A DNA stretch of 64,000 nucleotides from Bdellovibrionales bacterium (GCA_965261545.1 CBDHDF010000002.1:288001-352000), one strand, 5' to 3'. Positions 8,991 through 26,504 are shown, counted from the stretch's first letter. Notes: generated from the sequence alone by a model not told the origin. Translations and numbers: made by a program.

Positions 8991-10199
8991 TTCACCCCCT
9001 TTGTCATGGTGTATATTTTATACACCATTTTTGAGAAAATGAAAATAGATTTTTTATTAAAATCTAAGAAAAAATTGAATTTTCCCTTTGAAAATGAGAT
9101 TTTTTCAAAATTTTTGAAGAAGAATAATCCTGGTGTATATTTTTAACCATGAATTCAGGTGATTAAATAAGAGAAAAAAGGTTTATCTTGATCAAAATCT
9201 TTCTTCATATACTGAACGGATTGTTGGTAAAAAGGAGCATCTAAGGCTCCCATCGTTCCCATCTGTGCTCCTTGAAAGGATTCTTTACCGAAGTGCTTTC
9301 TCTCAATGCCTATGCTTTCATGGAGTTGATTGCGTCTAAAGAAATTAATTTCATTGGCGTGGAAAGAGGCTGTTTGGTAACCTTCTTCTTTGAGAAGATC
9401 GACGAGTGTGAAGTAGGATTTTTTGACATTAAAGGGCTTGGCAGGATGTGGGAAGAGGCTTGTAAAACACCTCTTTCAGGGTCGGAGCTTCCCCCCGAGT
9501 TGTGGATGGCATAGAAATTCTCAAAATTATGAGAAAATTCTTTGAAAGTACTTGAAAAATAGAATTTATAGGAACAATAAGATTCATAAGGACGAAGATA
9601 AAACTATAGAGAACGAGTCTTTTGTACACCATTTTTTTATAAAGTTTTATTTCTTGAAAGTTGGTAAAAAAGAGGAGAGAGGAAGTAAGAACCAACAAAG
9701 TCATGCTGTGGCCAGGGTGAAAAGTCCATAGACTCCAAGAAACAAAAGGAGAATATTGATATAGTTGTATGCAAAACATGAAATAATGAATGAATAAACA
9801 AAAGAACACAAAAAACGAGGCCCCGATGGGCGAGGAGAGAAACCAATGAACAATTCCATTGTGGATGATGTTGGAATTTAGTTTCTTATCCGGACGGGAG
9901 GGCTTACTTGTTATTATGTTATGATGAATATGAAAAAGTTGCACCTGGTCACCATCTGGAGGTTTTTTTATTGAACTTATTATATAAATTTATTATAAAT
10001 TTCCTTATAAAAAGGCACCCTATGCTACCAAGGACACCAATAAGAAATGGTCCAGAGATAAGGTCTTGCAAAAATGACTCTCTACGCACAAGCGGCAATA
10101 ACGAGTCGCATTATTTCTTATCGGTTGCATGAAATCAATAGTGAATGCTAGAAAGTTCAAACAACTTCCCTTAATTTTAATAACTTAGGAGTCAATATC

Positions 10200-10799
10200 A
10201 TGAGTAAAGCAGAGAAAATAAAAACATATTCAAGCTTGTGGGAAGAATTGTGTGATTTACCAGAAAATGTTGTGGGTGAGATTTTTAACGATGAACTTGT
10301 GGTCTCTCCAAGACCGGCTCCCAAATACGCTGTTACTTCTTCTTCTCTTGGTGGTGAACTTGTAAATCCATTTCAAAAAGGTAAAAACGGGGGGCCAGGA
10401 GGTTGGTGGATTATTGATGAACCAGAGCTTCATCTCGAAAAACCTGTTCAAAAAAGAGAGAAGACCAATGTGATTGTACCTGACTTAGCAGGTTGGAAAA
10501 AAGATCGTCTCCCAAAGCTTCCAGAAACGGCTTATTTTGAGCTACCTCCAGACTGGGTTTGTGAGGTTTTGTCTCCATCAACAGCTTGTTATGACAGGGT
10601 TTCAAAGATGAGGATATATGCCATTAATGAAATCCCTTATTATTGGGTGATAGACCCCATCGGTAGAACTTTAGAAATTTTTGTTCTTCAAGATGAAACC
10701 TACCGAATGGAGATAGGTTTTACTGGAAGCGATGAGGTTTTAGCTCCGCCCTTTGAAGCGATCGGGTTAGATTTAGGGGCACTATGGGATTACGAATAA
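10200..10799 (+). CDS. Uma2 (DUF820) family PD-(D/E)XK endonuclease
   Basis: GGPGGWWIIDEPELHL, VPDLAGW, PDWVCEVLSPST, YYWVIDP motifs; GGAG RBS. Confidence 0.9.
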   Translation: MSKAEKIKTYSSLWEELCDLPENVVGEIFNDELVVSPRPAPKYAVTSSSLGGELVNPFQKGKNGGPGGWWIIDEPELHLEKPVQKREKTNVIVPDLAGWKKDRLPKLPETAYFELPPDWVCEVLSPSTACYDRVSKMRIYAINEIPYYWVIDPIGRTLEIFVLQDETYRMEIGFTGSDEVLAPPFEAIGLDLGALWDYE

Positions 10800-10876
10800 G
10801 CCGTCATTTGCCTAGAATGTTACCCATGAGCAGCTTGCCTCTTTGGGTTCGTCGCTGTGTCGGGAAAGAGCTTTTC

Positions 10877-11191
10877 TCAGGATTTTGTGTTTTTGACTTT
10901 TTTACGCAGCTTTTCCACGTCTTTGGAAGTGAGTCTAGTACATAGACAAATCGCTTCTACCTCAAAGCCATGTTGAATCATTCGTAATGCCATCTCTTCG
11001 CGACCCTTCTCGATACCCTTCTCGATACCCTTCTCGATACCCTTCTCGATACCCTTCTCGATACCCTTCTCGATACCCTTCTCAAGACCCTTTTCGATAC
11101 CCTTTTCGATACCCTTCTCGATACCCTTCTTAAGGCCCTTTCTCATCCCCTTTTCCTCAGCTTCATCCAAAGAACATTGCAATGCTGACAT
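10877..11191 (-). CDS. Predicted intragenic small C-terminal protein (RpnS-type antitoxin), 104 aa; the same site is present in all nine Rpn copies
   Basis: Internal GAGGAGG RBS (11203-11209) upstream of an in-frame ATG (MSALQCSLDEAEEKG...). Rpn genes are known to encode internal C-terminal antitoxins. Confidence 0.55.
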   Translation of the reverse strand: MSALQCSLDEAEEKGMRKGLKKGIEKGIEKGIEKGLEKGIEKGIEKGIEKGIEKGIEKGIEKGREEMALRMIQHGFEVEAICLCTRLTSKDVEKLRKKVKNTKS

Positions 11192-11947
11192 AACTCTTTG
11201 ATCCTCCTCGATACTTTCTTTTTCAATCTTACTGAGTACATTTAAAGTAAAATCTGAATCGTTTCGGTGGATATAATCCACTGCTTTTTGAATAAGGAAC
11301 TGTTGATCCTTCTCACCTAAGTTTGTACCCATCTGAAACAGCTCCACAATGGTCTCATGGCGAAGTTTCCAGATACTACTCATTATAAGCAAAATCGGTC
11401 TAGAAAGCAAATTCCTGCCAACTCCACGGTAAAGGTTTATATCATGAATATTCAACAACTTACAACGAAAATTGAGGATATTCTTCCCAAATTTTTGTCT
11501 TAGAACGGGGGTGAGCCCATCCAGAGAATCTTGAAAATTCAGGGGGCCTCTCCAGTGTTTTTGGCGTCCGTGATAGACCAGTATGGGAATGACTGGATAG
11601 TTCCAGCGATTGTAAACAAGGGTCTGGTACCTCAGAATTTGTTGGAGCACTTGAGAATCTTGATGACTTTTGTGTTCGAGCAGAAAAAAAAGACGCACCC
11701 TTTTTTTGGACCCCTTGACTTGAACTGAGAATAAAAGGTCAATACGCCGTTCATTGCCCTCTTCATCTGTAAAGACAGTTATTTCTGGTTTGAGAGTTTT
11801 CCAGTTAAAGAGCTTAAACTCCTGTGTCGTCAAGACAAGACGGAAAATGTCTAGGCAATATCTCTCATTCAGGAAAGTTTCATTGAATAGAGCATTATGG
11901 GCCTGAGACTGTTGTTTTCTTTTTTCTGAGATTTTCTTTGGAGGCAA
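10877..11947 (-). CDS. Rpn/YhgA-like PD-(D/E)XK nuclease (putative transposase), array copy 1; 10 GxEK repeats
   Basis: HNALF, RRIDLLFSV, LLEHKS, LRYQ, PVIPILVYHG motifs; C-terminal (G-I/L-E-K)n GREE followed by MALRMIQ.G. Confidence 0.9.
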   Translation of the reverse strand: MPPKKISEKRKQQSQAHNALFNETFLNERYCLDIFRLVLTTQEFKLFNWKTLKPEITVFTDEEGNERRIDLLFSVQVKGSKKRVRLFFLLEHKSHQDSQVLQQILRYQTLVYNRWNYPVIPILVYHGRQKHWRGPLNFQDSLDGLTPVLRQKFGKNILNFRCKLLNIHDINLYRGVGRNLLSRPILLIMSSIWKLRHETIVELFQMGTNLGEKDQQFLIQKAVDYIHRNDSDFTLNVLSKIEKESIEEDQRVMSALQCSLDEAEEKGMRKGLKKGIEKGIEKGIEKGLEKGIEKGIEKGIEKGIEKGIEKGIEKGREEMALRMIQHGFEVEAICLCTRLTSKDVEKLRKKVKNTKS

Positions 11948-12189
11948 TGTCAGTCTTTCAAGTGAAGAGGGTTTTAGATGGGGCGGCTTAAGAAGATTAT
12001 GGACAAGTGTATGAGCAAGTGAGCGGAGTTATCTGTCCATAAATCATCAAGACAAGGTAAAAGGGGGTGGGTTCTCCGGTCAAGTCAGATCAAGTCAAAA
12101 ATTGGAAAGTCATCATTAACTATCATAAAACCGGAGAATTGATTATTCTTATCCTCCTCTCCGATATGGCTATCGCCGCCCTCTTCCGC

Positions 12190-12520
12190 TGTAATTGTAC
12201 CTGACTTAGCAGGTTGGAAAAAAGATCGTCTCCCAAAGCTTCCAGAAACGGCTTATTTTGAGCTACCTCCAGACTGGGTTTGTGAGGTTTTGTCTCCATC
12301 AACAGCTCGTTATGACAGGGTTTCAAAGATGAGGATATATGCCATTAATGAAATCCCTTATTATTGGGTGATAGACCCCATCGGTAGAACTTTAGAAATT
12401 TTTGTTCTTCAAGATGAAACCTACCGAATGGAGATAGGTTTTACTGGAAGCGATGAGGTTTTAGCTCCGCCCTTTGAAGCGATCGGGTTAGATTTAGGGG
12501 CACTATGGGATTACGAATAA
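12190..12520 (+). pseudogene. 5'-truncated Uma2 endonuclease fragment (unit 2)
   Basis: Matches 10469-10799; lacks the N-terminal ~90 codons. Confidence 0.85.
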
Positions 12521-12597
12521 GCCGTCATTTGCCTAGAATGTTACCCATGAGCAGCTTGCCTCTTTGGGTTCGTCGCTGTGTCGGGAAAGAGCTTTTC

Positions 12598-13680
12598 TCA
12601 GGATTTTATGTTTTTGACTTTTTTACGCAGCTTTTCCACGTCTTTGGAAGTGAGTCTAGTACATAGACAAATCGCTTCTACCTCAAAGCCATTTTGAATC
12701 ATTCGTAATGCCATCTCTTCACGACCCTTCTCGATACCCTTCTCGATACCCTTCTCGATACCCTTCTCGATACCCTTCTCGATACCCTTCTCGATACCCT
12801 TCTCAAGACCCTTTTCGATACCCTTTTCGATACCCTTCTCGATACCCTTCTCGATACCCTTCTTAAGGCCCTTTCTCATCCCCTTTTCCTCAGCTTCATC
12901 CAAAGAACATTGCAATGCTGACATAACTCTTTGATCCTCCTCGATACTTTCTTTTTCAATCTTACTGAGTACATTTAAAGTAAAATCTGGATCGTTTCGG
13001 TGGATATAATCCACCGCTTTTTGAATAAGGAACTTTTGATCCTTCTCATCCAAGTTTATACCCATCTGAAACAGCTCCACAATGGTCTCATGGCGAAGCC
13101 TCCAGATACTACTCATTATAAGCAAAATCGGCCTAGAAAGCAAATTCCTGCCAACTCCACGGTAAAGGTTTATATCATGAATATTCAACAACTTACAACG
13201 AAAATTGAGGATATTCTTCCCAAATTTTTGTCTTAGAACGGGGGTGAGCCCATCCAGAGAATCTTGAAAATTCAGGGGGCCTCTCCAGTGTTTTTGGCGT
13301 CCGTGATAGACCAGTATGGGAATGACTGGATAGTTCCAGCGATTGTAAACAAGGGTCTGGTACCTCAGAATTTGTTGGAGCACTTGAGAATCTTGATGAC
13401 TTTTGTGTTCGAGCAGAAAAAAAAGACGCACCCTTTTTTTGGACCCCTTGACTTGAACTGAGAATAAAAGGTCAATACGCCGTTCATTGCCCTCTTCATC
13501 TGTAAAGACAGTTATTTCTGGTTTGAGAGTTTTCCAGTTAAAGAGCTTAAACTCCTGTGTCGTCAAGACAAGACGGAAAATGTCTAGGCAATATCTCTCA
13601 TTCAGGAAAGTTTCATTGAATAGAGCATTATGGGCCTGAGACTGTTGTTTTCTTTTTTCTGAGATTTTCTTTGGAGGCAA
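12598..13680 (-). CDS. Rpn-family nuclease, array copy 2; 11 repeats
   Basis: Near-identical to copy 1; 360 aa. Confidence 0.9.
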   Translation of the reverse strand: MPPKKISEKRKQQSQAHNALFNETFLNERYCLDIFRLVLTTQEFKLFNWKTLKPEITVFTDEEGNERRIDLLFSVQVKGSKKRVRLFFLLEHKSHQDSQVLQQILRYQTLVYNRWNYPVIPILVYHGRQKHWRGPLNFQDSLDGLTPVLRQKFGKNILNFRCKLLNIHDINLYRGVGRNLLSRPILLIMSSIWRLRHETIVELFQMGINLDEKDQKFLIQKAVDYIHRNDPDFTLNVLSKIEKESIEEDQRVMSALQCSLDEAEEKGMRKGLKKGIEKGIEKGIEKGIEKGLEKGIEKGIEKGIEKGIEKGIEKGIEKGREEMALRMIQNGFEVEAICLCTRLTSKDVEKLRKKVKNIKS

Positions 13681-13922
13681 TGTCAGTCTTTCAAGTGAAG
13701 AGGGTTTTAGATGGGGCGGCTTAAGAAGATTATGGACAAGTGTATGAGCAAGTGAGCGGAGTTATCTGTCCATAAATCATCAAGACAAGGTAAAAGGGGG
13801 TGGGTTCTCCGGTCAAGTCAGATCAAGTCAAAAATTGGAAAGTCATCATTAACTATCATAAAACCGGAGAATTGATTATTCTTATCCTCCTCTCCGATAT
13901 GGCTATCGCCGCCCTCTTCCGC

Positions 13923-14253
13923 TGTAATTGTACCTGACTTAGCAGGTTGGAAAAAAGATCGTCTCCCAAAGCTTCCAGAAACGGCTTATTTTGAGCTACC
14001 TCCAGACTGGGTTTGTGAGGTTTTGTCTCCATCAACAGCTCGTTATGACAGGGTTTCAAAGATGAGGATATATGCCATTAATGAAATCCCTTATTATTGG
14101 GTGATAGACCCCATCGGTAGAACTTTAGAAATTTTTGTTCTTCAAGATGAAACCTACCGAATGGAGATAGGTTTTACTGGAAGCGATGAGGTTTTAGCTC
14201 CGCCCTTTGAAGCGATCGGGTTAGATTTAGGGGCACTATGGGATTACGAATAA
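13923..14253 (+). pseudogene. 5'-truncated Uma2 fragment (unit 3)
   Basis: As for unit 2. Confidence 0.85.
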
Positions 14254-14330
14254 GCCGTCATTTGCCTAGAATGTTACCCATGAGCAGCTTGCCTCTTTGG
14301 GTTCGTCGCTGTGTCGGGAAAGAGCTTTTC

Positions 14331-15389
14331 TCAGGATTTTATGTTTTTGACTTTTTTACGCAGCTTTTCCACGTCTTTGGAAGTGAGTCTAGTACATAGA
14401 CAAATCGCTTCTACCTCAAAGCCATTTTGAATCATTCGTAATGCCATCTCTTCACGACCCTTCTCGATACCCTTCTCGATACCCTTCTCGATACCCTTCT
14501 CGATACCCTTCTCAAGACCCTTTTCGATACCCTTTTCGATACCCTTCTCGATACCCTTCTCGATACCCTTCTTAAGGCCCTTTCTCATCCCCTTTTCCTC
14601 AGCTTCATCCAAAGAACATTGCAATGCTGACATAACTCTTTGATCCTCCTCGATACTTTCTTTTTCAATCTTACTGAGTACATTTAAAGTAAAATCTGGA
14701 TCGTTTCGGTGGATATAATCCACCGCTTTTTGAATAAGGAACTTTTGATCCTTCTCATCCAAGTTTATACCCATCTGAAACAGCTCCACAATGGTCTCAT
14801 GGCGAAGCCTCCAGATACTACTCATTATAAGCAAAATCGGCCTAGAAAGCAAATTCCTGCCAACTCCACGGTAAAGGTTTATATCATGAATATTCAACAA
14901 CTTACAACGAAAATTGAGGATATTCTTCCCAAATTTTTGTCTTAGAACGGGGGTGAGCCCATCCAGAGAATCTTGAAAATTCAGGGGGCCTCTCCAGTGT
15001 TTTTGGCGTCCGTGATAGACCAGTATGGGAATGACTGGATAGTTCCAGCGATTGTAAACAAGGGTCTGGTACCTCAGAATTTGTTGGAGCACTTGAGAAT
15101 CTTGATGACTTTTGTGTTCGAGCAGAAAAAAAAGACGCACCCTTTTTTTGGACCCCTTGACTTGAACTGAGAATAAAAGGTCAATACGCCGTTCATTGCC
15201 CTCTTCATCTGTAAAGACAGTTATTTCTGGTTTGAGAGTTTTCCAGTTAAAGAGCTTAAACTCCTGTGTCGTCAAGACAAGACGGAAAATGTCTAGGCAA
15301 TATCTCTCATTCAGGAAAGTTTCATTGAATAGAGCATTATGGGCCTGAGACTGTTGTTTTCTTTTTTCTGAGATTTTCTTTGGAGGCAA
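14331..15389 (-). CDS. Rpn-family nuclease, array copy 3; 9 repeats
   Basis: 352 aa, same motifs. Confidence 0.9.
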   Translation of the reverse strand: MPPKKISEKRKQQSQAHNALFNETFLNERYCLDIFRLVLTTQEFKLFNWKTLKPEITVFTDEEGNERRIDLLFSVQVKGSKKRVRLFFLLEHKSHQDSQVLQQILRYQTLVYNRWNYPVIPILVYHGRQKHWRGPLNFQDSLDGLTPVLRQKFGKNILNFRCKLLNIHDINLYRGVGRNLLSRPILLIMSSIWRLRHETIVELFQMGINLDEKDQKFLIQKAVDYIHRNDPDFTLNVLSKIEKESIEEDQRVMSALQCSLDEAEEKGMRKGLKKGIEKGIEKGIEKGIEKGLEKGIEKGIEKGIEKGIEKGREEMALRMIQNGFEVEAICLCTRLTSKDVEKLRKKVKNIKS

Positions 15390-15631
15390 TGTCAGTCTTT
15401 CAAGTGAAGAGGGTTTTAGATGGGGCGGCTTAAGAAGATTATGGACAAGTGTATGAGCAAGTGAGCGGAGTTATCTGTCCATAAATCATCAAGACAAGGT
15501 AAAAGGGGGTGGGTTCTCCGGTCAAGTCAGATCAAGTCAAAAATTGGAAAGTCATCATTAACTATCATAAAACCGGATAATTGATTATTCTTATCCTCCT
15601 CTCCGATATGGCTATCGCCGCCCTCTTCCGC

Positions 15632-15962
15632 TGTAATTGTACCTGACTTAGCAGGTTGGAAAAAAGATCGTCTCCCAAAGCTTCCAGAAACGGCTTATTT
15701 TGAGCTACCTCCAGACTGGGTTTGTGAGGTTTTGTCTCCATCAACAGCTCGTTATGACAGGGTTTCAAAGATGAGGATATATGCCATTAATGAAATCCCT
15801 TATTATTGGGTGATAGACCCCATCGGTAGAACTTTAGAAATTTTTGTTCTTCAAGATGAAACCTACCGAATGGAGATAGGTTTTACTGGAAGCGATGAGG
15901 TTTTAGCTCCGCCCTTTGAAGCGATCGGGTTAGATTTAGGGGCACTATGGGATTACGAATAA
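15632..15962 (+). pseudogene. 5'-truncated Uma2 fragment (unit 4)
   Basis: As for unit 2. Confidence 0.85.
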
Positions 15963-16039
15963 GCCGTCATTTGCCTAGAATGTTACCCATGAGCAGCTTG
16001 CCTCTTTGGGTTCGTCGCTGTGTCGGGAAAGAGCTTTTC

Positions 16040-17062
16040 TCAGGATTTTATGTTTTTGACTTTTTTACGCAGCTTTTCCACGTCTTTGGAAGTGAGTCTA
16101 GTACATAGACAAATCGCTTCTACCTCAAAGCCATTTTGAATCATTCGTAATGCCATCTCTTCACGACCCTTCTCGATACCCTTCTCGATACCCTTCTCGA
16201 TACCCTTCTCGATACCCTTCTCGATACCCTTCTCGATACCCTTCTTAAGGCCCTTTCTCATCCCCTTTTCCTCAGCTTCATCCAAAGAACATTGCAATGC
16301 TGACATAACTCTTTGATCCTCCTCGATACTTTCTTTTTCAATCTTACTGAGTACATTTAAAGTAAAATCTGGATCGTTTCGGTGGATATAATCCACCGCT
16401 TTTTGAATAAGGAACTTTTGATCCTTCTCATCCAAGTTTATACCCATCTGAAACAGCTCCACAATGGTCTCATGGCGAAGTTTCCAGATACTACTCATTA
16501 TAAGCAAAATCGGTCTAGAAAGCAAATTCCTGCCAACTCCACGGTAAAGGTTTATATCATGAATATTCAACAACTTACAACGAAAATTGAGGATATTCTT
16601 CCCAAATTTTTGTCTTAGAACGGGGGTGAGCCCATCCAGAGAATCTTGAAAATTCAGGGGGCCTCTCCAGTGTTTTTGGCGTCCGTGATAGACCAGTATG
16701 GGAATGACTGGATAGTTCCAGCGATTGTAAACAAGGGTCTGGTACCTCAGAATTTGTTGGAGCACTTGAGAATCTTGATGACTTTTGTGTTCGAGCAGAA
16801 AAAAAAGACGCACCCTTTTTTTGGACCCCTTGACTTGAACTGAGAATAAAAGGTCAATACGCCGTTCATTGCCCTCTTCATCTGTAAAGACAGTTATTTC
16901 TGGTTTGAGAGTTTTCCAGTTAAAGAGCTTAAACTCCTGTGTCGTCAAGACAAGACGGAAAATGTCTAGGCAATATCTCTCATTCAGGAAAGTTTCATTG
17001 AATAGAGCATTATGGGCCTGAGACTGTTGTTTTCTTTTTTCTGAGATTTTCTTTGGAGGCAA
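16040..17062 (-). CDS. Rpn-family nuclease, array copy 4; 6 repeats
   Basis: 340 aa, same motifs. Confidence 0.9.
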   Translation of the reverse strand: MPPKKISEKRKQQSQAHNALFNETFLNERYCLDIFRLVLTTQEFKLFNWKTLKPEITVFTDEEGNERRIDLLFSVQVKGSKKRVRLFFLLEHKSHQDSQVLQQILRYQTLVYNRWNYPVIPILVYHGRQKHWRGPLNFQDSLDGLTPVLRQKFGKNILNFRCKLLNIHDINLYRGVGRNLLSRPILLIMSSIWKLRHETIVELFQMGINLDEKDQKFLIQKAVDYIHRNDPDFTLNVLSKIEKESIEEDQRVMSALQCSLDEAEEKGMRKGLKKGIEKGIEKGIEKGIEKGIEKGIEKGREEMALRMIQNGFEVEAICLCTRLTSKDVEKLRKKVKNIKS

Positions 17063-17622
17063 TGTCAGTCTTTCAAGTGAAGAGGGTTTTAGATGGGGCG
17101 GCTTAAGAAGATTATGGACAAGTGTATGAGCAAGTGAGCGGAGTTATCTGTCCATAAATCATCAAGACAAGGTAAAAGGGGGTGGGTTCTCCGGTCAAGT
17201 CAGATCAAGTCAAAAATTGGAAAGTCATCATTAACTATCATAAAACCGGAGAATTGATTATTCTTATCCTCCTCTCCGATATGGCTATCGCCGCCCTCTT
17301 CCGCTGTGATTGTACCTGACTTAGCAGGTTGGAAAAAAGATCGTCTCCCAAAGCTTCCAGAAACGGCTTATTTTGAGCTACCTCCAGACTGGGTTTGTGA
17401 GGTTTTGTCTCCATCAACAGCTCGTTATGACAGGGTTTCAAAGATGAGGATATATGCCATTAATGAAATCCCTTATTATTGGGTGATAGACCCCATCGGT
17501 AGAACTTTAGAAATTTTTGTTCTTCAAGATGAAAGTAAATCATCGAGGAACCCCGTCTTTCAATAATTTTGAGATGTAATAGACTGAATCCATAACCACT
17601 AACTACTTACGAGGAGATAGAT

Positions 17623-18021
17623 ATGGATTTAGAGATTTTACGCAAGAAATTGAGCACATATCGTGGCCCAAGCGGCCGCATACGAGGAGCCAGTGATGAA
17701 CTCCTTTATGAGTTGCTGACGGCCTGGGAGAATTGGTCGGGTCCGATGAGCGGCTTCTATAAATCTCTTGGAGTCAGTAGGAATGGTATGGCCTCAATGA
17801 TAGGCAAGGCAAAGAAGCTAAAAAGAGAGGGCCATTTTCCGGAGTCAGAGTTTAAAGAGATCAAGATGGAGCCAAGTTCTTCGCTCCCAGGGGTGAGTTC
17901 TCCCTCCCATTCAGGCATCATTTTGAGATGGTCAAGGGGGCAAGTCATCCGTTTTCCCCATGTGGATGGGCTGATTGAATTTCTAAATAAGACAGATAAG
18001 ACAGAAAAGAAGGCCTCATGA
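17623..18021 (+). CDS. tnpA: IS66 accessory protein TnpA-like
   Basis: First gene of the IS66 operon; GAGGAG RBS; ATGA overlap with tnpB. Confidence 0.7.
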   Translation: MDLEILRKKLSTYRGPSGRIRGASDELLYELLTAWENWSGPMSGFYKSLGVSRNGMASMIGKAKKLKREGHFPESEFKEIKMEPSSSLPGVSSPSHSGIILRWSRGQVIRFPHVDGLIEFLNKTDKTEKKAS

Positions 18022-18410
18022 TAGCTTTGAACCGCAGGACCAAAATATTCGTCTGTAAGGAGCCCACAGATATGAGGGCTTCTTATGATTCTTTATTTCA
18101 TCGAGCCAAGACAGTTTTAGACAAGGACCCTTTTTCGGGTCATTTATTTTTGTTTGTCAACCGCCGTCGTACGTCGTGCAAGTGCCTGTACTATGATGGC
18201 ACAGGATTGGTAATTTTATCCAAGCGTCTTGAGCAGGGAACATTTTCTAGGATCAATCCTTTTCATAGTAAAGAAATTGTATTAACAGAGGCCGAGTTTG
18301 GTTTATTTTTTGAGGGAGCGAATTTAGAAAAAAGGTTTATAGAAAGTCCTTTGGAGATAAAAAAAGTTGCTAAAAAAATATTCCCAATGAGTCAAGAGTT
18401 GTCACTTTAA
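18018..18410 (+). CDS. tnpB: IS66 accessory protein TnpB
   Basis: PTDMRASYDSL, DPFSGHLFLFVNRRR, KCLYYDGTG, KRLEQGTF motifs. Confidence 0.92.
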   Translation: MIALNRRTKIFVCKEPTDMRASYDSLFHRAKTVLDKDPFSGHLFLFVNRRRTSCKCLYYDGTGLVILSKRLEQGTFSRINPFHSKEIVLTEAEFGLFFEGANLEKRFIESPLEIKKVAKKIFPMSQELSL

Positions 18411-18434
18411 AAATATTTGTTTATCCTTTTATTT

Positions 18435-20069
18435 ATGAGCCAAGAAGATCTTTTCAAAGTTGTTCCAAAGACTCGATTTGACTTGATAAAAAAAGGTGAA
18501 GTTGTTTACCTTTTCCAAGAAGCCGAGCACACCATCCGCAAGCTGCAAAAAGAGATCAAAGACTTAAGAAATCTCCATGGAGAACTGAAGCAAAAAACTT
18601 TCTTGGTGGATGAGCAATATATTCTTTTAAAGAACAAGCTTTTTGGCAAAAGCTCAGAAAAGGAATCTCCAGATAATAAGAAAGATTCATCCCACCCAGC
18701 TTCGTTTCAAAATTCTACTTCTGACAAGGATGAAAAAAGAAAAAAGCGTATCCAGCTCCCCTCGGAAAGATATCCCAATGCCCCCGTTGTTGAACAAGAG
18801 GTGGAGCTTCAAGAACCTCCCAAATGCACTTGCTGTGGGGCCGAGATGAAGGACTCAGGTCTTACGGAAGCCAGTGAGTACCTCACCGTGGTTCCTGCCA
18901 AATATCTTATTATTAGACAAAAACGCCACAAATATAACTGTGGCCGTTGTCACGGGAGTCTTAAAACCGCTTCTACCCCCCCTCGAATCAAACCAAAGAG
19001 TTCTTACAGCGATGAAATGATGTTGGATGTGTCTTTGACCAAATACTGTGACCTCATTCCCATAGAGCGCTATGGGGCCATAGCTGGAAGAGCTGGGCTC
19101 GAAGGCTTACCTCCCCAAAGTCTCATAGAGTTGACCCACCATGTGGCCGACTTTACAAAAGGAGCTTACGATAAGCTCAAAGAAGAGATTCAAAGCAGCC
19201 AGGTTCTTCATGCCGATGAAACCCCTCACAAAATGCTTGAGAGAAATGGGGGGAAGAGTTGGTATTTATGGGGATTTTCCAATACAAAGACGAGTTATTT
19301 TGAAATACACAACACTCGCTCTGGGGATGTGTCTTCAAAGATGATAAAGAACTCCAAGTGTGAATATTTGGTCAGTGATGTTTTTTCTGGCTACAGCAAA
19401 ACAGTGAGAGAAGTGAATCAATACCGGAAAGACAGAGAAAATAAAGAAGAATTTAAGAAACTTTACAATGTGTACTGCAATGCCCATGCGAGGAGAAAGT
19501 TCAGGGAGGCCGTGGTGGCGAACTTGAACAAAGAGCCAGATCCATCCCAGTGTGCCCAATATTTTGTGAATATCTATGGAAAGATTTATCGTCTGGCAAA
19601 AATAGCCAAGAATGGGGAGCAAGGCTGTGATAAATTCCTGCGTGCTCAAAGGCTTATGCTCTGTCTATTTGAGAAGATGAAGGTGCGGGCCATGGAAGAT
19701 ATGGGGGGCTACTCTTCCAAAAGCTCTATGGGCAAGGCCATGGGATATCTTCTCAGAAACTATAAAGGCTTGACTTTGTTTGCTCACCACCACGGCTTGC
19801 CCATTGACAATAATTGCCAAGAACGACAGCTTCGCAGTCCTGTGGTGGGGCGCAAGACATGGTATGGAACGCACTCTAAAAGAGGGGCTGAAACAGCCTC
19901 CATATTGTTCTCCTTGGTAGAGTCATGCAAACTCAATCAGGTCAATCCAAGGGAGTATTTCAAAAAACTGGTCCAAGATATCCATCAAGGCAAAAATCCA
20001 TATACACCCTCTCAATACAAGATCTTGTATCCTCCCAACGAAAATAAAGACGATTTATTGCATATGTGA
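18435..20069 (+). CDS. tnpC: IS66 DDE transposase TnpC
   Basis: Coiled coil LFGKSSE, zinc ribbon CTCCG..CGRC, LHADET, CNAHARRKF, IDNNCQERQLR..VVGRK motifs. Confidence 0.92.
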   Translation: MSQEDLFKVVPKTRFDLIKKGEVVYLFQEAEHTIRKLQKEIKDLRNLHGELKQKTFLVDEQYILLKNKLFGKSSEKESPDNKKDSSHPASFQNSTSDKDEKRKKRIQLPSERYPNAPVVEQEVELQEPPKCTCCGAEMKDSGLTEASEYLTVVPAKYLIIRQKRHKYNCGRCHGSLKTASTPPRIKPKSSYSDEMMLDVSLTKYCDLIPIERYGAIAGRAGLEGLPPQSLIELTHHVADFTKGAYDKLKEEIQSSQVLHADETPHKMLERNGGKSWYLWGFSNTKTSYFEIHNTRSGDVSSKMIKNSKCEYLVSDVFSGYSKTVREVNQYRKDRENKEEFKKLYNVYCNAHARRKFREAVVANLNKEPDPSQCAQYFVNIYGKIYRLAKIAKNGEQGCDKFLRAQRLMLCLFEKMKVRAMEDMGGYSSKSSMGKAMGYLLRNYKGLTLFAHHHGLPIDNNCQERQLRSPVVGRKTWYGTHSKRGAETASILFSLVESCKLNQVNPREYFKKLVQDIHQGKNPYTPSQYKILYPPNENKDDLLHM

Positions 20070-20077
20070 CAAACTTT

Positions 20078-20374
20078 TTATCCATTTGGCTTGACGACTT
20101 CCCATACAGCTAGCCTTAAATGCCCCTTAACTTTGTGTGCAACGCCAACAGCATCAAGTAATGCAAGCCGTTCTAGAGGAATACTATCAATATTTTGGTC
20201 GTCTTCAAATTCTAAGTGAATGACCTTTTTGTGAAGAAACTCCTTCATCTCTGGTCGAATATTTTTGTCAATAGTAACAACCAAAAAATTAAAATGATTG
20301 GCCTTTGTCTTCATAGGCCAAAACCCAAGACTTCGAAGTCTGCTCAATTTCTTGTGTAAAATCTCTAAATCCAT
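20078..20374 (-). CDS. Chimeric passenger ORF inside IS66 whose first 11 codons copy tnpA
   Basis: MDLEILHKKLS vs TnpA MDLEILRKKLS; GAGGAGG RBS lies within the right inverted end. Confidence 0.5.
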   Translation of the reverse strand: MDLEILHKKLSRLRSLGFWPMKTKANHFNFLVVTIDKNIRPEMKEFLHKKVIHLEFEDDQNIDSIPLERLALLDAVGVAHKVKGHLRLAVWEVVKPNG

Positions 20375-20641
20375 ATTTACCTCCTCGTAAGTGGTTATGG
20401 ATTCAGTCTATTACACCTTCAAATTATTGAAAGACGGGGTTCCTGGATGATTTACAGATGAAACCTACCGAATGGAGATAGGTTTTACTGGAAGCGATGA
20501 GGTTTTAGCTCCGCCCTTTGAAGCGATCGGGTTAGATTTAGGGGCACTATGGGATTACGAATAAGCCGTCATTTGCCTAGAATGTTACCCATGAGCAGCT
20601 TGCCTCTTTGGGTTCGTCGCTGTGTCGGGAAAGAGCTTTTC

Positions 20642-21676
20642 TCAGGATTTTATGTTTTTGACTTTTTTACGCAGCTTTTCCACGTCTTTGGAAGTGAGTC
20701 TAGTACATAGACAAATCGCTTCTACCTCAAAGCCATTTTGAATCATTCGTAATGCCATCTCTTCACGACCCTTCTCGAGACCCTTCTCGATACCCTTCTC
20801 GATACCCTTCTCGATACCCTTCTCGATACCCTTCTCGATACCCTTCTCGATACCCTTCTTAAGGCCCTTTCTCATCCCCTTTTCCTCAGCTTCATCCAAA
20901 GAACATTGCAATGCTGACATAACTCTTTGATCCTCCTCGATACTTTCTTTTTCAATCTTACTGAGTACATTTAAAGTAAAATCTGGATCGTTTCGGTGGA
21001 TATAATCCACCGCTTTTTGAATAAGGAACTTTTGATCCTTCTCATCCAAGTTTATACCCATCTGAAACAGCTCCACAATGGTCTCATGGCGAAGTTTCCA
21101 GATACTACTCATTATAAGCAAAATCGGTCTAGAAAGCAAATTCCTGCCAACTCCACGGTAAAGGTTTATATCATGAATATTCAACAACTTACAACGAAAA
21201 TTGAGGATATTCTTCCCAAATTTTTGTCTTAGAACGGGGGTGAGCCCATCCAGAGAATCTTGAAAATTCAGGGGGCCTCTCCAGTGTTTTTGGCGTCCGT
21301 GATAGACCAGTATGGGAATGACTGGATAGTTCCAGCGATTGTAAACAAGGGTCTGGTACCTCAGAATTTGTTGGAGCACTTGAGAATCTTGATGACTTTT
21401 GTGTTCGAGCAGAAAAAAAAGACGCACCCTTTTTTTGGACCCCTTGACTTGAACTGAGAATAAAAGGTCAATACGCCGTTCATTGCCCTCTTCATCTGTA
21501 AAGACAGTTATTTCTGGTTTGAGAGTTTTCCAGTTAAAGAGCTTAAACTCCTGTGTCGTCAAGACAAGACGGAAAATGTCTAGGCAATATCTCTCATTCA
21601 GGAAAGTTTCATTGAATAGAGCATTATGGGCCTGAGACTGTTGTTTTCTTTTTTCTGAGATTTTCTTTGGAGGCAA
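20642..21676 (-). CDS. Rpn-family nuclease, array copy 5; 7 repeats
   Basis: 344 aa, same motifs. Confidence 0.9.
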   Translation of the reverse strand: MPPKKISEKRKQQSQAHNALFNETFLNERYCLDIFRLVLTTQEFKLFNWKTLKPEITVFTDEEGNERRIDLLFSVQVKGSKKRVRLFFLLEHKSHQDSQVLQQILRYQTLVYNRWNYPVIPILVYHGRQKHWRGPLNFQDSLDGLTPVLRQKFGKNILNFRCKLLNIHDINLYRGVGRNLLSRPILLIMSSIWKLRHETIVELFQMGINLDEKDQKFLIQKAVDYIHRNDPDFTLNVLSKIEKESIEEDQRVMSALQCSLDEAEEKGMRKGLKKGIEKGIEKGIEKGIEKGIEKGIEKGLEKGREEMALRMIQNGFEVEAICLCTRLTSKDVEKLRKKVKNIKS

Positions 21677-21918
21677 TGTCAGTCTTTCAAGTGAAGAGGG
21701 TTTTAGATGGGGCGGCTTAAGAAGATTATGGACAAGTGTATGAGCAAGTGAGCGGAGTTATCTGTCCATAAATCATCAAGACAAGGTAAAAGGGGGTGGG
21801 TTCTCCGGTCAAGTCAGATCAAGTCAAAAATTGGAAAGTCATCATTAACTATCATAAAACCGGAGAATTGATTATTCTTATCCTCCTCTCCGATATGGCT
21901 ATCGCCGCCCTCTTCCGC

Positions 21919-22249
21919 TGTAATTGTACCTGACTTAGCAGGTTGGAAAAAAGATCGTCTCCCAAAGCTTCCAGAAACGGCTTATTTTGAGCTACCTCCA
22001 GACTGGGTTTGTGAGGTTTTGTCTCCATCAACAGCTCGTTATGACAGGGTTTCAAAGATGAGGATATATGCCATTAATGAAATCCCTTATTATTGGGTGA
22101 TAGACCCCATCGGTAGAACTTTAGAAATTTTTGTTCTTCAAGATGAAACCTACCGAATGGAGATAGGTTTTACTGGAAGCGATGAGGTTTTAGCTCCGCC
22201 CTTTGAAGCGATCGGGTTAGATTTAGGGGCACTATGGGATTACGAATAA
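21919..22249 (+). pseudogene. 5'-truncated Uma2 fragment (unit 6)
   Basis: As for unit 2. Confidence 0.85.
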
Positions 22250-22326
22250 GCCGTCATTTGCCTAGAATGTTACCCATGAGCAGCTTGCCTCTTTGGGTTC
22301 GTCGCTGTGTCGGGAAAGAGCTTTTC

Positions 22327-23313
22327 TCAGGATTTTATGTTTTTGACTTTTTTACGCAGCTTTTCCACGTCTTTGGAAGTGAGTCTAGTACATAGACAAA
22401 TCGCTTCTACCTCAAAGCCATTTTGAATCATTCGTAATGCCATCTCTTCACGACCCTTCTCGATACCCTTCTCGATACCCTTCTCGATACCCTTCTTAAG
22501 GCCCTTTCTCATCCCCTTTTCCTCAGCTTCATCCAAAGAACATTGCAATGCTGACATAACTCTTTGATCCTCCTCGATACTTTCTTTTTCAATCTTACTG
22601 AGTACATTTAAAGTAAAATCTGGATCGTTTCGGTGGATATAATCCACCGCTTTTTGAATAAGGAACTTTTGATCCTTCTCATCCAAGTTTATACCCATCT
22701 GAAACAGCTCCACAATGGTCTCATGGCGAAGCCTCCAGATACTACTCATTATAAGCAAAATCGGCCTAGAAAGCAAATTCCTGCCAACTCCACGGTAAAG
22801 GTTTATATCATGAATATTCAACAACTTACAACGAAAATTGAGGATATTCTTCCCAAATTTTTGTCTTAGAACGGGGGTGAGCCCATCCAGAGAATCTTGA
22901 AAATTCAGGGGGCCTCTCCAGTGTTTTTGGCGTCCGTGATAGACCAGTATGGGAATGACTGGATAGTTCCAGCGATTGTAAACAAGGGTCTGGTACCTCA
23001 GAATTTGTTGGAGCACTTGAGAATCTTGATGACTTTTGTGTTCGAGCAGAAAAAAAAGACGCATCCTTTTTTTGGACCCCTTGACTTGAACTGAGAATAA
23101 AAGGTCAATACGCCGTTCATTGCCCTCTTCATCTGTAAAGACAGTTATTTCTGGTTTGAGAGTTTTCCAGTTAAAGAGCTTAAACTCCTGTGTCGTCAAG
23201 ACAAGACGGAAAATGTCTAGGCAATATCTCTCATTCAGGAAAGTTTCATTGAATAGAGCATTATGGGCCTGAGACTGTTGTTTTCTTTTTTCTGAGATTT
23301 TCTTTGGAGGCAA
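22327..23313 (-). CDS. Rpn-family nuclease, array copy 6; 3 repeats
   Basis: 328 aa, same motifs. Confidence 0.9.
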   Translation of the reverse strand: MPPKKISEKRKQQSQAHNALFNETFLNERYCLDIFRLVLTTQEFKLFNWKTLKPEITVFTDEEGNERRIDLLFSVQVKGSKKRMRLFFLLEHKSHQDSQVLQQILRYQTLVYNRWNYPVIPILVYHGRQKHWRGPLNFQDSLDGLTPVLRQKFGKNILNFRCKLLNIHDINLYRGVGRNLLSRPILLIMSSIWRLRHETIVELFQMGINLDEKDQKFLIQKAVDYIHRNDPDFTLNVLSKIEKESIEEDQRVMSALQCSLDEAEEKGMRKGLKKGIEKGIEKGIEKGREEMALRMIQNGFEVEAICLCTRLTSKDVEKLRKKVKNIKS

Positions 23314-23544
23314 TGTCAGTCTTTCAAGTGAAGAGGGTTTTAGATGGGGCGGCTTAAGAAGATTATGGACAAGTGAGCGGAGTTATCTGTCCATAAATCA
23401 TCAAGACAAGGTAAAAGGGGGTGGGTTCTCCGGTCAAGTCAGATCAAGTCAAAAATTGGAAAGTCATCATTAACTATCATAAAACCGGAGAATTGATTAT
23501 TCTTATCCTCCTCTCCGATATGGCTATCGCCGCCCTCTTCCGCT

Positions 23545-23874
23545 GTGATTGTACCTGACTTAGCAGGTTGGAAAAAAGATCGTCTCCCAAAGCTTCCAGA
23601 AACGGCTTATTTTGAGCTACCTCCAGACTGGGTTTGTGAGGTTTTGTCTCCATCAACAGCTCGTTATGACAGGGTTTCAAAGATGAGGATATATGCCATT
23701 AATGAAATCCCTTATTATTGGGTGATAGACCCCATCGGTAGAACTTTAGAAATTTTTGTTCTTCAAGATGAAACCTACCGAATGGAGATAGGTTTTACTG
23801 GAAGCGATGAGGTTTTAGCTCCGCCCTTTGAAGCGATCGGGTTAGATTTAGGGGCACTATGGGATTACGAATAA
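23545..23874 (+). pseudogene. 5'-truncated Uma2 fragment (unit 7; retains an in-frame GTG)
   Basis: 109-aa ORF IVPDLAGW...LWDYE. Confidence 0.8.
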
Positions 23875-23951
23875 GCCGTCATTTGCCTAGAATGTTACCC
23901 ATGAGCAGCTTGCCTCTTTGGGTTCGTCGCTGTGTCGGGAAAGAGCTTTTC

Positions 23952-24998
23952 TCAGGATTTTATGTTTTTGACTTTTTTACGCAGCTTTTCCACGTCTTTG
24001 GAAGTGAGTCTAGTACATAGACAAATCGCTTCTACCTCAAAGCCATTTTGAATCATTCGTAATGCCATCTCTTCACGACCCTTCTCGATACCCTTCTCGA
24101 TACCCTTCTCGATACCCTTCTCGATACCCTTCTCAAGACCCTTTTCGATACCCTTCTCGATACCCTTCTCGATACCCTTCTTAAGGCCCTTTCTCATCCC
24201 CTTTTCCTCAGCTTCATCCAAAGAACATTGCAATGCTGACATAACTCTTTGATCCTCCTCGATACTTTCTTTTTCAATCTTACTGAGTACATTTAAAGTA
24301 AAATCTGGATCGTTTCGGTGGATATAATCCACCGCTTTTTGAATAAGGAACTTTTGATCCTTCTCATCCAAGTTTATACCCATCTGAAACAACTCCACAA
24401 TGGTCTCATGGCGAAGCTTCCAGATACTACTCATTATAAGCAAAATCGGCCTAGAAAGCAAATTCCTGCCAACTCCACGGTAAAGGTTTATATCATGAAT
24501 ATTCAACAACTTACAACGAAAATTGAGGATATTCTTCCCAAATTTTTGTCTTAGAACGGGGGTGAGCCCATCCAGAGAATCTTGAAAATTCAGGGGGCCT
24601 CTCCAGTGTTTTTGGCGTCCGTGATAGACCAGTATGGGAATGACTGGATAGTTCCAGCGATTGTAAACAAGGGTCTGGTACCTCAGAATTTGTTGGAGCA
24701 CTTGAGAATCCTGATGACTTTTGTGTTCGAGCAGAAAAAAAAGACGCACCCTTTTTTTGGACCCCTTGACTTGAACTGAGAATAAAAGGTCAATACGCCG
24801 TTCATTGCCCTCTTCATCTGTAAAGACAGTTATTTCTGGTTTGAGAGTTTTCCAGTTAAAGAGCTTAAACTCCTGTGTCGTCAAGACAAGACGGAAAATG
24901 TCTAGGCAATATCTCTCATTCAGGAAAGTTTCATTGAATAGAGCATTATGGGCCTGAGACTGTTGTTTTCTTTTTTCTGAGATTTTCTTTGGAGGCAA
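23952..24998 (-). CDS. Rpn-family nuclease, array copy 7; 8 repeats
   Basis: 348 aa, same motifs. Confidence 0.9.
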   Translation of the reverse strand: MPPKKISEKRKQQSQAHNALFNETFLNERYCLDIFRLVLTTQEFKLFNWKTLKPEITVFTDEEGNERRIDLLFSVQVKGSKKRVRLFFLLEHKSHQDSQVLQQILRYQTLVYNRWNYPVIPILVYHGRQKHWRGPLNFQDSLDGLTPVLRQKFGKNILNFRCKLLNIHDINLYRGVGRNLLSRPILLIMSSIWKLRHETIVELFQMGINLDEKDQKFLIQKAVDYIHRNDPDFTLNVLSKIEKESIEEDQRVMSALQCSLDEAEEKGMRKGLKKGIEKGIEKGIEKGLEKGIEKGIEKGIEKGIEKGREEMALRMIQNGFEVEAICLCTRLTSKDVEKLRKKVKNIKS

Positions 24999-25220
24999 TG
25001 TCAGTCTTTCAAGTGAAGAGGGTTTTAGATGGGGCGGCTTAAGAAGATTATGGACAAGTGTATGAGCAAGTGAGCGGAGTTATCTGTCCATAAATCATCA
25101 AGACAAGATAAAAGGGGGTGGGTTCTCCGGTCAAGTCAGATCAAGTCAAAAATTGGAAAGTCATCATTAACTATCATAAAACCGGAGAATTGATTATTCT
25201 TATCCTCCTCTCCGATATGG

Positions 25221-26504
25221 CTATCGCCGCCCTCTTCCGCCATTGCTATCATCGTCCTCGCCATCCCGATTGTCCTCGCTATCCTCTTCGGTCATGGTTA
25301 TCGCCCATCCCCCATTGCCACTATCATCCTCGTCATGACTATCTTCCTCGTCGGTGATAATTCGTGGTCTTCGCCACCACCACCATCGATTATCACTATT
25401 ATCATTATCATCGTCATCTAGGAATCTTCCAAAATACTTTTGCCAGATAATTTGTGGGTTTTGCTGCCTCTTTTCAGTGCGTTTGATTCTGGCTCTTCGT
25501 CTGTGTTTTGGTTTTGGTTTTTGTTTGTCCAGACGTTTTCTTTTTTCTTCCTCGGCTTTTGCTTTGGCTTGAGCTCGGGCTCTTGCCTCCCCATATTCTT
25601 CAAATTCCTCGGCCCCATATTTGTTGCTTCGGAGAAGCCATGGGGGGGTGTAGTAGGGGGGAATTTCTTTATCGTAGAGGGGGAATTTTGGAAGTCGATG
25701 TGGTGGGTCGAAGTATTTCTTAACGATCTTGTTCCACAGGCTCGCAAGACAAACGAGAGAGCAAAATGTGGGAGCCAATATGGGGAAGTAGGCTTCAGTG
25801 AGAAAGAGGGAGGCCGTTAATATGAGGAGGAGTAACCATATAAAGCTTAGGTAGATCCATATATTTGTTATGTCTGTGATCGTGGGGACCCGGTGACGCC
25901 AAAAACAATACCAAATGTACACATAGGCGGGGATTCCCAAGGGAATGGCCGCGACCACAAAAACAAAGCCCGGGAGAGCTGTGCCTAGGAAGGAGGGATA
26001 CAAAAGGGAAGTCACCAAGGGAATGGCAGGTATGACAATATACCAAATGGTGACCTTGTGCCTATAATAGCCTTTCAACCGGGGGCCAATGAAAATCAGA
26101 TGCAAAAGGCAAAGGAGGGAGAAGGCTGAGGTCAAGTAAACATTTTTAAAGAAGGTGTGAAAGGGGATGATGAAGAGAGCGACTGGTAGGAGGGCATGGG
26201 TAGTAATGATTTCAAAGCTCATAAGAGCATAGGAAAAAAACCTGATTTTTTGAGATAAGAAGACCAGGGTGATTATTTCATAAACAATGAGTATTTGTAT
26301 AAATTCTGGGAGGTTGTGTTTAAGTATGAAGCTAAAATCTTGATGGGATTGACCTGACTGGACCCACCAGAGTTCAAGGAGGTGACCTAAGATAAAGCAC
26401 ATGTAGAGAATTTGGCTGAGTTTCCAGCCCCATTCAACCCTCTCTCTTCTCAGGCGAGGAGAAAGCGGAAGGTGCCTTTTGGGTATGGGAGGTTTTTCAA
26501 GCAA
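25221..26504 (-). CDS. Hypothetical multi-pass membrane protein with charged low-complexity C-terminus (start uncertain)
   Basis: 427-aa ORF with about 8-9 hydrophobic segments, then basic and Asp-rich tracts; downstream of the Rhs gene. Confidence 0.6.
   Translation of the reverse strand: MLEKPPIPKRHLPLSPRLRRERVEWGWKLSQILYMCFILGHLLELWWVQSGQSHQDFSFILKHNLPEFIQILIVYEIITLVFLSQKIRFFSYALMSFEIITTHALLPVALFIIPFHTFFKNVYLTSAFSLLCLLHLIFIGPRLKGYYRHKVTIWYIVIPAIPLVTSLLYPSFLGTALPGFVFVVAAIPLGIPAYVYIWYCFWRHRVPTITDITNIWIYLSFIWLLLLILTASLFLTEAYFPILAPTFCSLVCLASLWNKIVKKYFDPPHRLPKFPLYDKEIPPYYTPPWLLRSNKYGAEEFEEYGEARARAQAKAKAEEEKRKRLDKQKPKPKHRRRARIKRTEKRQQNPQIIWQKYFGRFLDDDDNDNSDNRWWWWRRPRIITDEEDSHDEDDSGNGGWAITMTEEDSEDNRDGEDDDSNGGRGRR

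Follow-up and report, generated by a model that had tools for sequence, protein, structure and literature searches.

We present here a tandem array of seven Rpn-type nuclease genes from a Bdellovibrionales bacterium, located in a 64,000-nucleotide stretch of DNA (GCA_965261545.1, CBDHDF010000002.1:288001-352000, or C2:288001-352000 below) that was analyzed as a whole and is called the window. The source is a metagenome-type assembly with 96.8% completeness and 3.7% contamination. Positions 10469-25240 consist of seven head-to-tail units of about 1.7 kb each, as determined from repeat families and a MAFFT alignment of the units. With a probability of roughly 60%, we read the array as a young tandem amplification of one gene for a PD-(D/E)XK nuclease, RpnL, with an internally encoded antitoxin, RpnS, whose copies differ in helix length and probably form self-pairing modules. 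The anatomy, the family membership, the youth of the array, purifying selection on the family, and stepwise change of the repeats are the established parts of this reading.

According to the available text of Zhong et al. (PNAS 2023, PMC10400941), each rpn gene codes for two proteins, the toxic nuclease RpnL and the antitoxin RpnS, which is translated from within the gene and blocks RpnL. Four-residue repeats start 8-20 residues past the RpnS methionine and vary in number between strains, and one "KGIE" repeat added to Escherichia coli RpnC-S or RpnC-L abolishes neutralization unless both carry it. The same text reports that tandem rpn arrays arise by direct duplication and that plasmid Rpn protects E. 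coli from some phages. The idea that repeat variation among coresident rpn copies prevents inhibition in trans was voiced in a 2023 commentary (PMC10400984, available text). A preliminary description of the present DNA, generated from the sequence alone, had summarized Rpn proteins as toxins with an internal C-terminal inhibitor and variable repeats, in agreement with the available text of PMC10400941. Tandem arrays, variation of the four-residue repeat, and length-specific RpnS-RpnL pairing are thus already in print there; new here are an extreme case of a known array type and a small replication across genomes. No further paper on repeat numbers within rpn arrays was found in the literature searched, and neither there nor in the available text of the 2023 article and commentary, figures and one picture-only page of supporting information apart, was a statement found on copies within one array that differ in repeat number. 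The 2023 work left open what drives the variation in repeat number and whether coresident rpn copies are insulated from one another.

Array structure

Each unit contains a 3′ fragment of a Uma2 gene, a convergent minus-strand Rpn gene, the 242 bp upstream of the Rpn gene, and the last 20 nucleotides (nt) of an open reading frame (ORF) at 25221-26504 (Table 1). The sole full-length Uma2 gene at the locus stands at the left edge of the array, and the repeat unit opens with the 331 bases of its 3′ part, from 10469. All six internal junctions are identical (...CTCTTCCGC joined to TGT(A/G)ATTG), and comparison of these with the two outer boundaries of the array gave no microhomology. The first duplication would therefore have arisen by illegitimate joining, after which unequal exchange between units suffices for further growth.

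An older duplicate of the convergent Uma2(+)/Rpn(-) pair lies just left of the window at C2:284851-286538, with a Uma2 gene 92% identical to that of the array and an Rpn gene with five repeat units. This is an eighth copy of the GIEK tract type, with a Uma2 neighbor of its own. Since the pair is present twice, the founder of the array would itself be a copy of a two-gene module.

Outside the repeat tract and an insertion sequence (IS), units 2 to 7 are nearly alike and vary at just a few positions, with 0-5 single-nucleotide polymorphisms (SNPs) between them; one SNP and two repeat units separate unit 2 from unit 3. Unit 1, at the array edge, has about 12 private SNPs in the 3′ half of the Rpn gene, and these give it C-terminal residues like those of the dispersed paralogs described below. 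Unit 6 (22327-23543) has a 12-bp deletion (CAAGTGTATGAG, plus strand) about 70-80 nt upstream of the Rpn start. In dispersed paralogs of the GREE type, the corresponding place has 6 additional bases, and this points to a small hot spot for indels in the Rpn leader.

The preliminary description had reported seven intact, near-identical Rpn/YhgA-like genes with 10, 11, 9, 6, 7, 3, and 8 repeat units, all different. Seven open minus-strand ORFs were found, and a regular-expression count of G[IL]EK agrees exactly with these numbers. The 12-bp tracts were also detected by TRF, with 93-100% matches. At the DNA level, the tracts are built from unit types A (GGTATCGAGAAG), a (a GAA variant), L (CTT), and L′ (CTC instead of CTT), and the seven patterns are interrelated by gains and losses of one or two units. 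All length differences between array units are exact multiples of 12. Judged from the unit alignment, the tract appears to change at least as fast as point changes accumulate over the whole 1.7-kb unit. Such a rate is ordinary for a 12-bp tandem repeat.

The unit alignment and the DNA patterns support both parts of the origin proposed earlier, which were gene amplification (here, tandem duplication) and slipped-strand change of a variable-number tandem repeat (here, gain and loss of 12 bp unit by unit). Recombination within the tract was also considered, as the protein sequences of copies 1, 2, 3, and 7 display all four combinations {3,4} x {4,6} around GLEK. This four-gamete argument was dropped, since the left blocks differ at the DNA level (Aaa, AAaa, AAaa, and AAa) and one- or two-unit steps explain them.

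In the proposed course of events, the 3′ end of ORF 25221-26504 would have been joined illegitimately to the middle of Uma2 to give the first duplicate, and unequal homologous exchange between 1.7-kb units would have raised the number to seven. Slippage-like gain or loss of single 12-bp KGIE-coding repeats would have given the distinct lengths of the long C-terminal helix. By analogy with E. coli RpnC and from a predicted in-register dimer, each copy would then be a self-contained toxin-antitoxin pair in which RpnS probably neutralizes its own RpnL only.

Family membership and selection

The Pfam profile Transposase_31 (PF04754), the family suggested for a search in the preliminary description, matches residues 16-202 of the Rpn protein with 83.8 bits against a cutoff of 21 (E 1.6e-23), and it also matches copy 6 and two dispersed copies in the window. 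The NCBIfam RpnA model gives an E value of 6e-7, far under its cutoff. Among 1,231 database relatives, the closest are 72-84% identical, and those with names are labeled as Rpn family recombination-promoting nuclease/putative transposase. The closest genomic relatives are metagenome-assembled genomes of Bdellovibrionales, Bacteriovoracaceae, and Oligoflexia; no close homologue was found in 40 related genomes. All of the 17 aligned homologues share residues D70 and E91-H92-K93, which also occur in each of the seven array copies. We take them to be the catalytic residues of the PD-(D/E)XK fold.

In PADLOC, no Rpn system model matched the locus, and the matches obtained were a "putative invertase" match to the C-terminal part and the Uma2 gene as PDC-S03. 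A Pfam scan of the candidate RpnS gave only subthreshold, helix-turn-helix-like matches. Many homologues carry the precomputed label PF27070.

The genome contains about 16 full-length Rpn paralogs and about a dozen broken or truncated ones, at 92-100% nucleotide identity, most of them on C2 between 279 and 381 kb. Their tracts are of two types, GIEK and GREE. The five GREE-type copies, two of them inside the window, have 5, 6, 7, 8, and 10 tetrads. Over the first 250 codons, the array copies differ from the dispersed paralogs by 23-25 synonymous and 3-9 nonsynonymous changes (proportion of synonymous differences [pS], ~0.15; ratio of the nonsynonymous proportion to it [pN/pS], 0.03-0.12). Judged from these sequence differences, purifying selection acts on the family, which is much older than the array. 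Two Rpn paralogs on different contigs, at C2:785203-786147 and C5:13206-14150, have identical search rows and identical printed N- and C-terminal sequences; they would be either a very recent dispersed duplication or one locus assembled twice.

Candidate internal start and predicted structure

A candidate RpnS start is the ATG at codon 253, with GGAGG 11 nt upstream; Met253 is nearly invariant in the 17-sequence alignment. The 3-11 repeat units start 18 amino acids (aa) past it, within the published range of 8-20 aa. A second ATG at codon 268, with GAGGA 7 nt upstream, is missing in the GREE-type paralogs. Internal starts were surveyed in 69 Rpn ORFs of at least 290 aa with a tetrad tract, taken from the window and from fetched loci, many of them paralogs. 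A methionine lies 4-30 aa ahead of the tract in 68 of the 69, and this methionine is preceded by a Shine-Dalgarno (SD)-like motif in 57 of 68 cases, compared with 28 of 272 other internal methionines in the same ORFs. By these signs, RpnS would be translated from Met253; toxicity, length-specific pairing, and any role in defense would follow by likeness to the published proteins. When 10100-12300 was scanned for promoters and terminators, the numbers of hits did not exceed those in shuffled sequences.

An AlphaFold2 model of copy 4 (mean predicted local distance difference test [pLDDT], 76.7) has an alpha/beta core, a helical middle, a helix at residues 253-309, and two further helices at 314-321 and 325-339. 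The long helix holds the repeats, with a low pLDDT of 51-54 in the tract. Foldseek gave no match in the PDB at an E value of ≤0.001. In a wide structural search, the top match of the N-terminal part was the NucS endonuclease (2vld_B; Z 7.5, root mean square deviation [rmsd] 2.8, 104 residues aligned); further neighbors are also PD-(D/E)XK nucleases, the nearest structures having Z-scores of 5.7-7.5. Model residues 285-330 aligned with 46 of the 46 residues of E. coli RpnA-S (7th0_A; Z 6.5, rmsd 1.4 Å). We regard this full-length, low-rmsd match as the informative row of the structural search.

Prediction of a homodimer of RpnS (residues 253-340) gave an interface score (ipSAE) of 0.50, compared with 0.00 for the best control, with at least 98% of contacts common between runs and a partner pLDDT of at least 84. 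The pass mark used is reached by 20 of 30 solved homodimers and by 1 of 23 single chains. In the predicted dimer, the two chains run parallel and in register, and self-contacts fall on each fourth residue (263, 267, 271 ... 291), which are the tetrad Ala/Gly positions with Ile beside them. If this geometry is right, unequal repeat numbers would shift the flanking segments by four residues per repeat, and such a shift would explain the published length specificity.

Other Rpn arrays and repeat number

Comparable arrays are present in independent assemblies. A Bacteriovoracaceae assembly contains a five-copy array (L024) with 9, 7, 6, 8, and 4 tetrads and a four-copy array (L019) with 6, 4, 7, and 5; their units have 1-6 mismatches in 1.4-1.6 kb, and the gaps are multiples of 12. 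In Clostridia, a three-copy array (L067) has 4, 8, and 3 tetrads, and the copies of a pair in another genome (L068) are one tetrad apart. The number of tetrads is likewise unequal in near-identical pairs from L013, L035, L040, and L070. Ties occur in L013 (4/4, with three substitutions), L025 (8/8, with different sequence and 93% identity), and L026 (3/3, identical, with a short nonrepetitive tract). We read the copy-by-copy difference as real and typical of Rpn arrays.

The preliminary description had proposed testing whether repeat counts are overdispersed across tandem Rpn arrays. In 12 sets of near-identical neighbors, 3 of 50 pairs are tied, compared with 7.1 expected under a null of pooled counts (P = 0.07); a uniform null of 3-13 gives P = 0.33, and the 11 sets without this array give P = 0.42 under the pooled null. 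The 11-set test is the fairer one, as this array was picked for the feature. For the three largest arrays only, which are a chosen subset, P ranges from 0.0003 (uniform over the observed range) to 0.1 (uniform, 3-20). Ties are not significantly avoided. Fragments of less than 290 aa, neighbors of other subfamilies (L036, L041, and L042), dispersed copies at separate loci (L020 and L022), and diverged neighbors (L069, L072, and L073, with 83%, 76%, and 23% identity) were dropped from the count, and a fifth L019 copy with three units was counted within the L026 pair. The counts alone do not demonstrate selection for distinct lengths; a fast-mutating repeat is sufficient.

These counts bear on a neutral explanation, in which a duplicative and possibly selfish gene was amplified by unequal crossing-over while its unstable 12-bp repeat drifted, so that the lengths have no adaptive meaning and the array serves neither as a library nor for defense. 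The lack of a significant rarity of ties agrees with it under each of the first three tests above, as do the ties at short or nonrepetitive tracts (L026 and L013) and in L025, which a mutational model predicts. The unit patterns one or two steps apart, the many decayed paralogs, and the active IS elements around the array point the same way. Set against it are the strong purifying selection on the family (pN/pS as above), by which the protein matters to something, and the four largest near-identical arrays (7, 5, 4, and 3 copies), which are free of ties and have tightly packed counts. The published effect of repeat number on RpnS-RpnL pairing (PMC10400941, available text) also makes it unlikely that the length differences are functionally silent. 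We consider the neutral explanation possible but doubtful.

The preliminary description had further stressed that all seven ORFs stay open and that the IS66 element struck the Uma2 fragment. Both features were observed. Open ORFs carry little weight in so young an array, where changes of 12 bp leave the reading frame intact, and a single IS in the 38% of a unit outside the Rpn gene is unremarkable.

Genomes bearing PF04754 numbered 7 of 301 in the phylum of this bacterium, 19 of 250 in Clostridia, 4 of 301 in Bacteroidia, and 38 of 251 in Spirochaetota. Among the candidates scored in these four surveys, at most 10-12 per genome, near-identical tandem sets were found in Clostridia only (L067, L068, and L070). 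In L068 (G461:C1:1198000-1207000), each Rpn gene is followed by a small ORF (2438-2875 and 6629-7156) that is like the C-terminal part of Rpn only. These small ORFs are also one GIEK unit apart, and they resemble the free-standing RpnSs genes described in E. coli.

Assembly support

An artifact of assembly, with one or two real copies inflated to seven or with tract lengths due to sequencing errors, would be conceivable for a metagenome-type assembly whose k-mer contigs are fragmentary, none of them crossing a unit. These pieces reach 30 letters beyond the boundaries of the units and the ends of the IS, too little to be counted as bridging, and 12-bp tracts that exceed the word length are beyond the resolution of k-mer contigs. 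Several features speak for seven real copies. Each unit has a signature of its own in SNPs, tract pattern, the 12-bp deletion, or the IS, which has a proper target duplication of 8 bp; the length differences are without exception multiples of 12; and blocks of about 7 and 5 kb of the array lie on the two sides of the IS. The same architecture recurs in independent assemblies of other genomes, and the word depth of Rpn-internal pieces is 21-44, compared with 2-10 for the flanks in the same runs, although depth is not copy number. An artifact is very improbable.

Interpretation

Returning to the young amplification of self-pairing RpnL/RpnS modules, several points weigh against this reading. On the side of family assignment, the NCBIfam Rpn family model TIGR01784 scores 46.1 bits, below its cutoff of 52.1, with a match that runs end to end (residues 19-347 on profile positions 4-273). 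The C-terminal part has no Pfam match, and PF14261 (DUF4351) was absent even at E values up to 10 from both the 76-aa candidate RpnS and the whole proteins. A sequence search of the PDB missed the C-terminal domain; its sole match, to a rhoptry protein, was one of low complexity. The Z-scores of the structural search are middling, and values below 8 can reflect a common arrangement; the dimer may have passed because the model remembers the solved RpnA-S dimer, and the prediction is a matter of likeness, not of binding.

On the side of expression, RpnL is annotated to start at a TTG that lacks an SD-like motif within the preceding 20 nt, and a sigma-70 scan of the 242 bp ahead of the Rpn gene gave no promoter-like site. 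Such an RpnL start would fit low translation of the toxin and higher translation of the antitoxin. Among the k-mer contigs of four runs from one sample, no piece spans a unit. The many broken paralogs mean that copies are not all maintained. Finally, in the available text of PMC10400941, length-specific neutralization is reported for one E. coli protein and for a one-repeat difference only.

A further alternative is dosage, in which the array was selected for more of one defense or nuclease activity and the repeat differences are incidental. Young tandem arrays most commonly arise because a beneficial gene was amplified, and each unit has the same 242-bp upstream region together with the gene. 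The copies would not be interchangeable doses if pairing is length specific as published (PMC10400941, available text), and we hold dosage to be improbable.

The array resembles known systems in several respects and differs from them in others. As in E. coli RpnC (and RpnA, B, D, and E), an N-terminal Transposase_31 PD-(D/E)XK domain is combined with a candidate internal start for a small C-terminal protein. The four-residue repeats, with one hydrophobic residue and the others charged or Gly, include the same tetrad KGIE that was inserted in RpnC (PMC10400941, available text). In the predicted model, the long first helix and the distal C-terminal part that superposes on RpnA-S are also shared with E. 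coli Rpn. The E. coli rpn genes are dispersed single copies compared between strains, whereas here seven near-identical tandem copies with seven numbers occur in one genome; sequence identity to the E. coli models is low, and the present protein is known from sequence and predictions.

According to the legend of Fig. S1B of PMC10400941, a Parabacteroides sp. Marseille array is likewise a tandem direct duplication with an rpn gene and without target-site duplications. It belongs to another lineage, and the units described here, unlike that array, also carry a Uma2 fragment and, in one unit, an IS66 element. The L024, L019, and L067 arrays likewise have near-identical units, and in their copies, too, the same tract varies in length by multiples of 12 bp. 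Their proteins are 45-51% identical (L019 and L024) or more distant, their tetrads are of GRQE, GIEK, and GEK type, their copies are fewer, and no Uma2 fragment was noted there. A four-residue repeat whose number in a helical spacer alters molecular specificity is also known from the "TAEL" repeats of EcoR124I/EcoR124II HsdS (PMC10400941, available text). There, the spacer sets the DNA-target spacing of a type I restriction enzyme, unlike the protein-protein pairing proposed here.

The array provides a natural, nearly isogenic allelic series of seven genes that differ essentially in tract length (3, 6, 7, 8, 9, 10, and 11 units). It makes a full RpnS-by-RpnL cross-neutralization matrix, and a comparison of phage defense with one or many variants, directly testable. 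If pairing is length coded, the slippage-prone repeat would be a generator of new toxin-antitoxin specificities; if it is not, the array would be nothing more unusual than a recently amplified multicopy gene whose in-frame repeat is unstable. The diversifying defense library put forward in the preliminary description is plausible but unproven. We offer as a tentative extension, and as rather unlikely, that Rpn arrays are self-diversifying banks of orthogonal toxin-antitoxin modules, in which the number of KGIE repeats is a length code for RpnS-RpnL pairing, slippage mints new modules, and copies of equal length are redundant and may be lost, leaving arrays with distinct lengths only. If so, a new module would be immune to the resident antitoxins and to a single phage-encoded RpnS mimic. 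As part of the same extension, a nearby Hjc-like family with paralog-specific numbers of coiled-coil repeats hints that length-coded pairing may be a wider principle.

Genomic surroundings

Table 1. Features of the window, with the array first and other genes after it.
Feature	Position	Strand	Details
Unit 1	starts at 10469		1721 bp
Unit 2	starts at 12190		1733 bp
Unit 3	starts at 13923		1709 bp
Unit 4	starts at 15632		1673 bp
Unit 5	starts at 17305		4614 bp (1685 + 2929-bp IS insertion)
Unit 6	starts at 21919		1625 bp
Unit 7	starts at 23544		1697 bp; array end 25240
Rpn copy 1	10877-11947	-	356 aa; 10 repeats; pattern AaaLAAAAAA; candidate RpnS 10877-11191 (104 aa)
Rpn copy 2	12598-13680	-	360 aa; 11 repeats; pattern AAaaLAAAAAA; candidate RpnS 12598-12924
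Rpn copy 3	14331-15389	-	352 aa; 9 repeats; pattern AAaaLAAAA; candidate RpnS 14331-14633
Rpn copy 4 (copy modeled)	16040-17062	-	340 aa; 6 repeats; pattern AAAAAA; candidate RpnS 16040-16306 (88 aa)
Rpn copy 5	20642-21676	-	344 aa; 7 repeats; pattern AAAAAAL′; candidate RpnS 20642-20920
Rpn copy 6	22327-23313	-	328 aa; 3 repeats; pattern AAA; candidate RpnS 22327-22557 (76 aa)
Rpn copy 7	23952-24998	-	348 aa; 8 repeats; pattern AAaLAAAA; candidate RpnS 23952-24242
Uma2 (DUF820-type PD-(D/E)XK), full length	10200-10799	+	Pfam PF05685, E 3.8e-25; PADLOC candidate PDC-S03, E 7e-20
IS66-family element	17527-20463	+	including target duplications; IS 17535-20455, 2921 bp; from Pfam and flank sequences
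IS66 target duplications	17527-17534 and 20456-20463		8 bp, AGATGAAA
IS66 ORFs	17623-18021; 18018-18410; 18417-20069	+	second TnpB_IS66, third DDE_Tnp_IS66 (Pfam)
ORF near IS66 right end	20078-20374	-	98 aa
Dispersed Rpn paralog, GREE subtype	55345-56319	-	tract GLKK GLEK GREE x3; convergent with Hjc-like gene 54364-55161
Dispersed Rpn paralog, GREE subtype	60101-61087	-	tract GLKK GREE GREK GREE x3
Hjc-like genes	54364-55161; 57753-58496; 62534-63385	+	weak PF01870
Giant protein	26868-34064	-	2398 aa; RHS-repeat and PKD/Ig domains
Giant protein	34085-42184	-	2699 aa; many RCC1 repeats and PKD/Ig domains
SocA/Panacea antitoxin-like gene	1485-2377	-	PF13274, E 1.7e-16

The IS66-family element is inserted in the Uma2 fragment of unit 5 and has near-perfect terminal inverted repeats. 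Its transposase is 100% and 99.8% identical to those of two further copies in the genome, so the insertion is recent. Near its right end, the minus-strand ORF has an N terminus (MDLEIL.KKLS) almost the same as that of the first plus-strand IS ORF, which suggests an inverted partial duplicate inside the element. The neighborhood is rich in transposases of IS4-like, Mutator, and IS66 types.

A second expanded family with a nuclease fold, with weak Pfam matches to Hjc (PF01870, E ~1e-5), has about 20 paralogs at C2:342-401 kb. These proteins are 247-347 aa long, and their charged, coiled-coil-like N termini consist of repeated modules of ~18 aa and ~7 aa, the number of which varies by paralog. 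Five of the genes are convergent with GREE-type Rpn copies, and tandem runs without Rpn are present at C2:384-401 kb.

No tRNA gene was found in the window. Two giant proteins are encoded next to the array. The SocA/Panacea antitoxin-like gene is followed, with one base of overlap, by a 126-aa ORF without a family, and the two would make a possible toxin-antitoxin pair.

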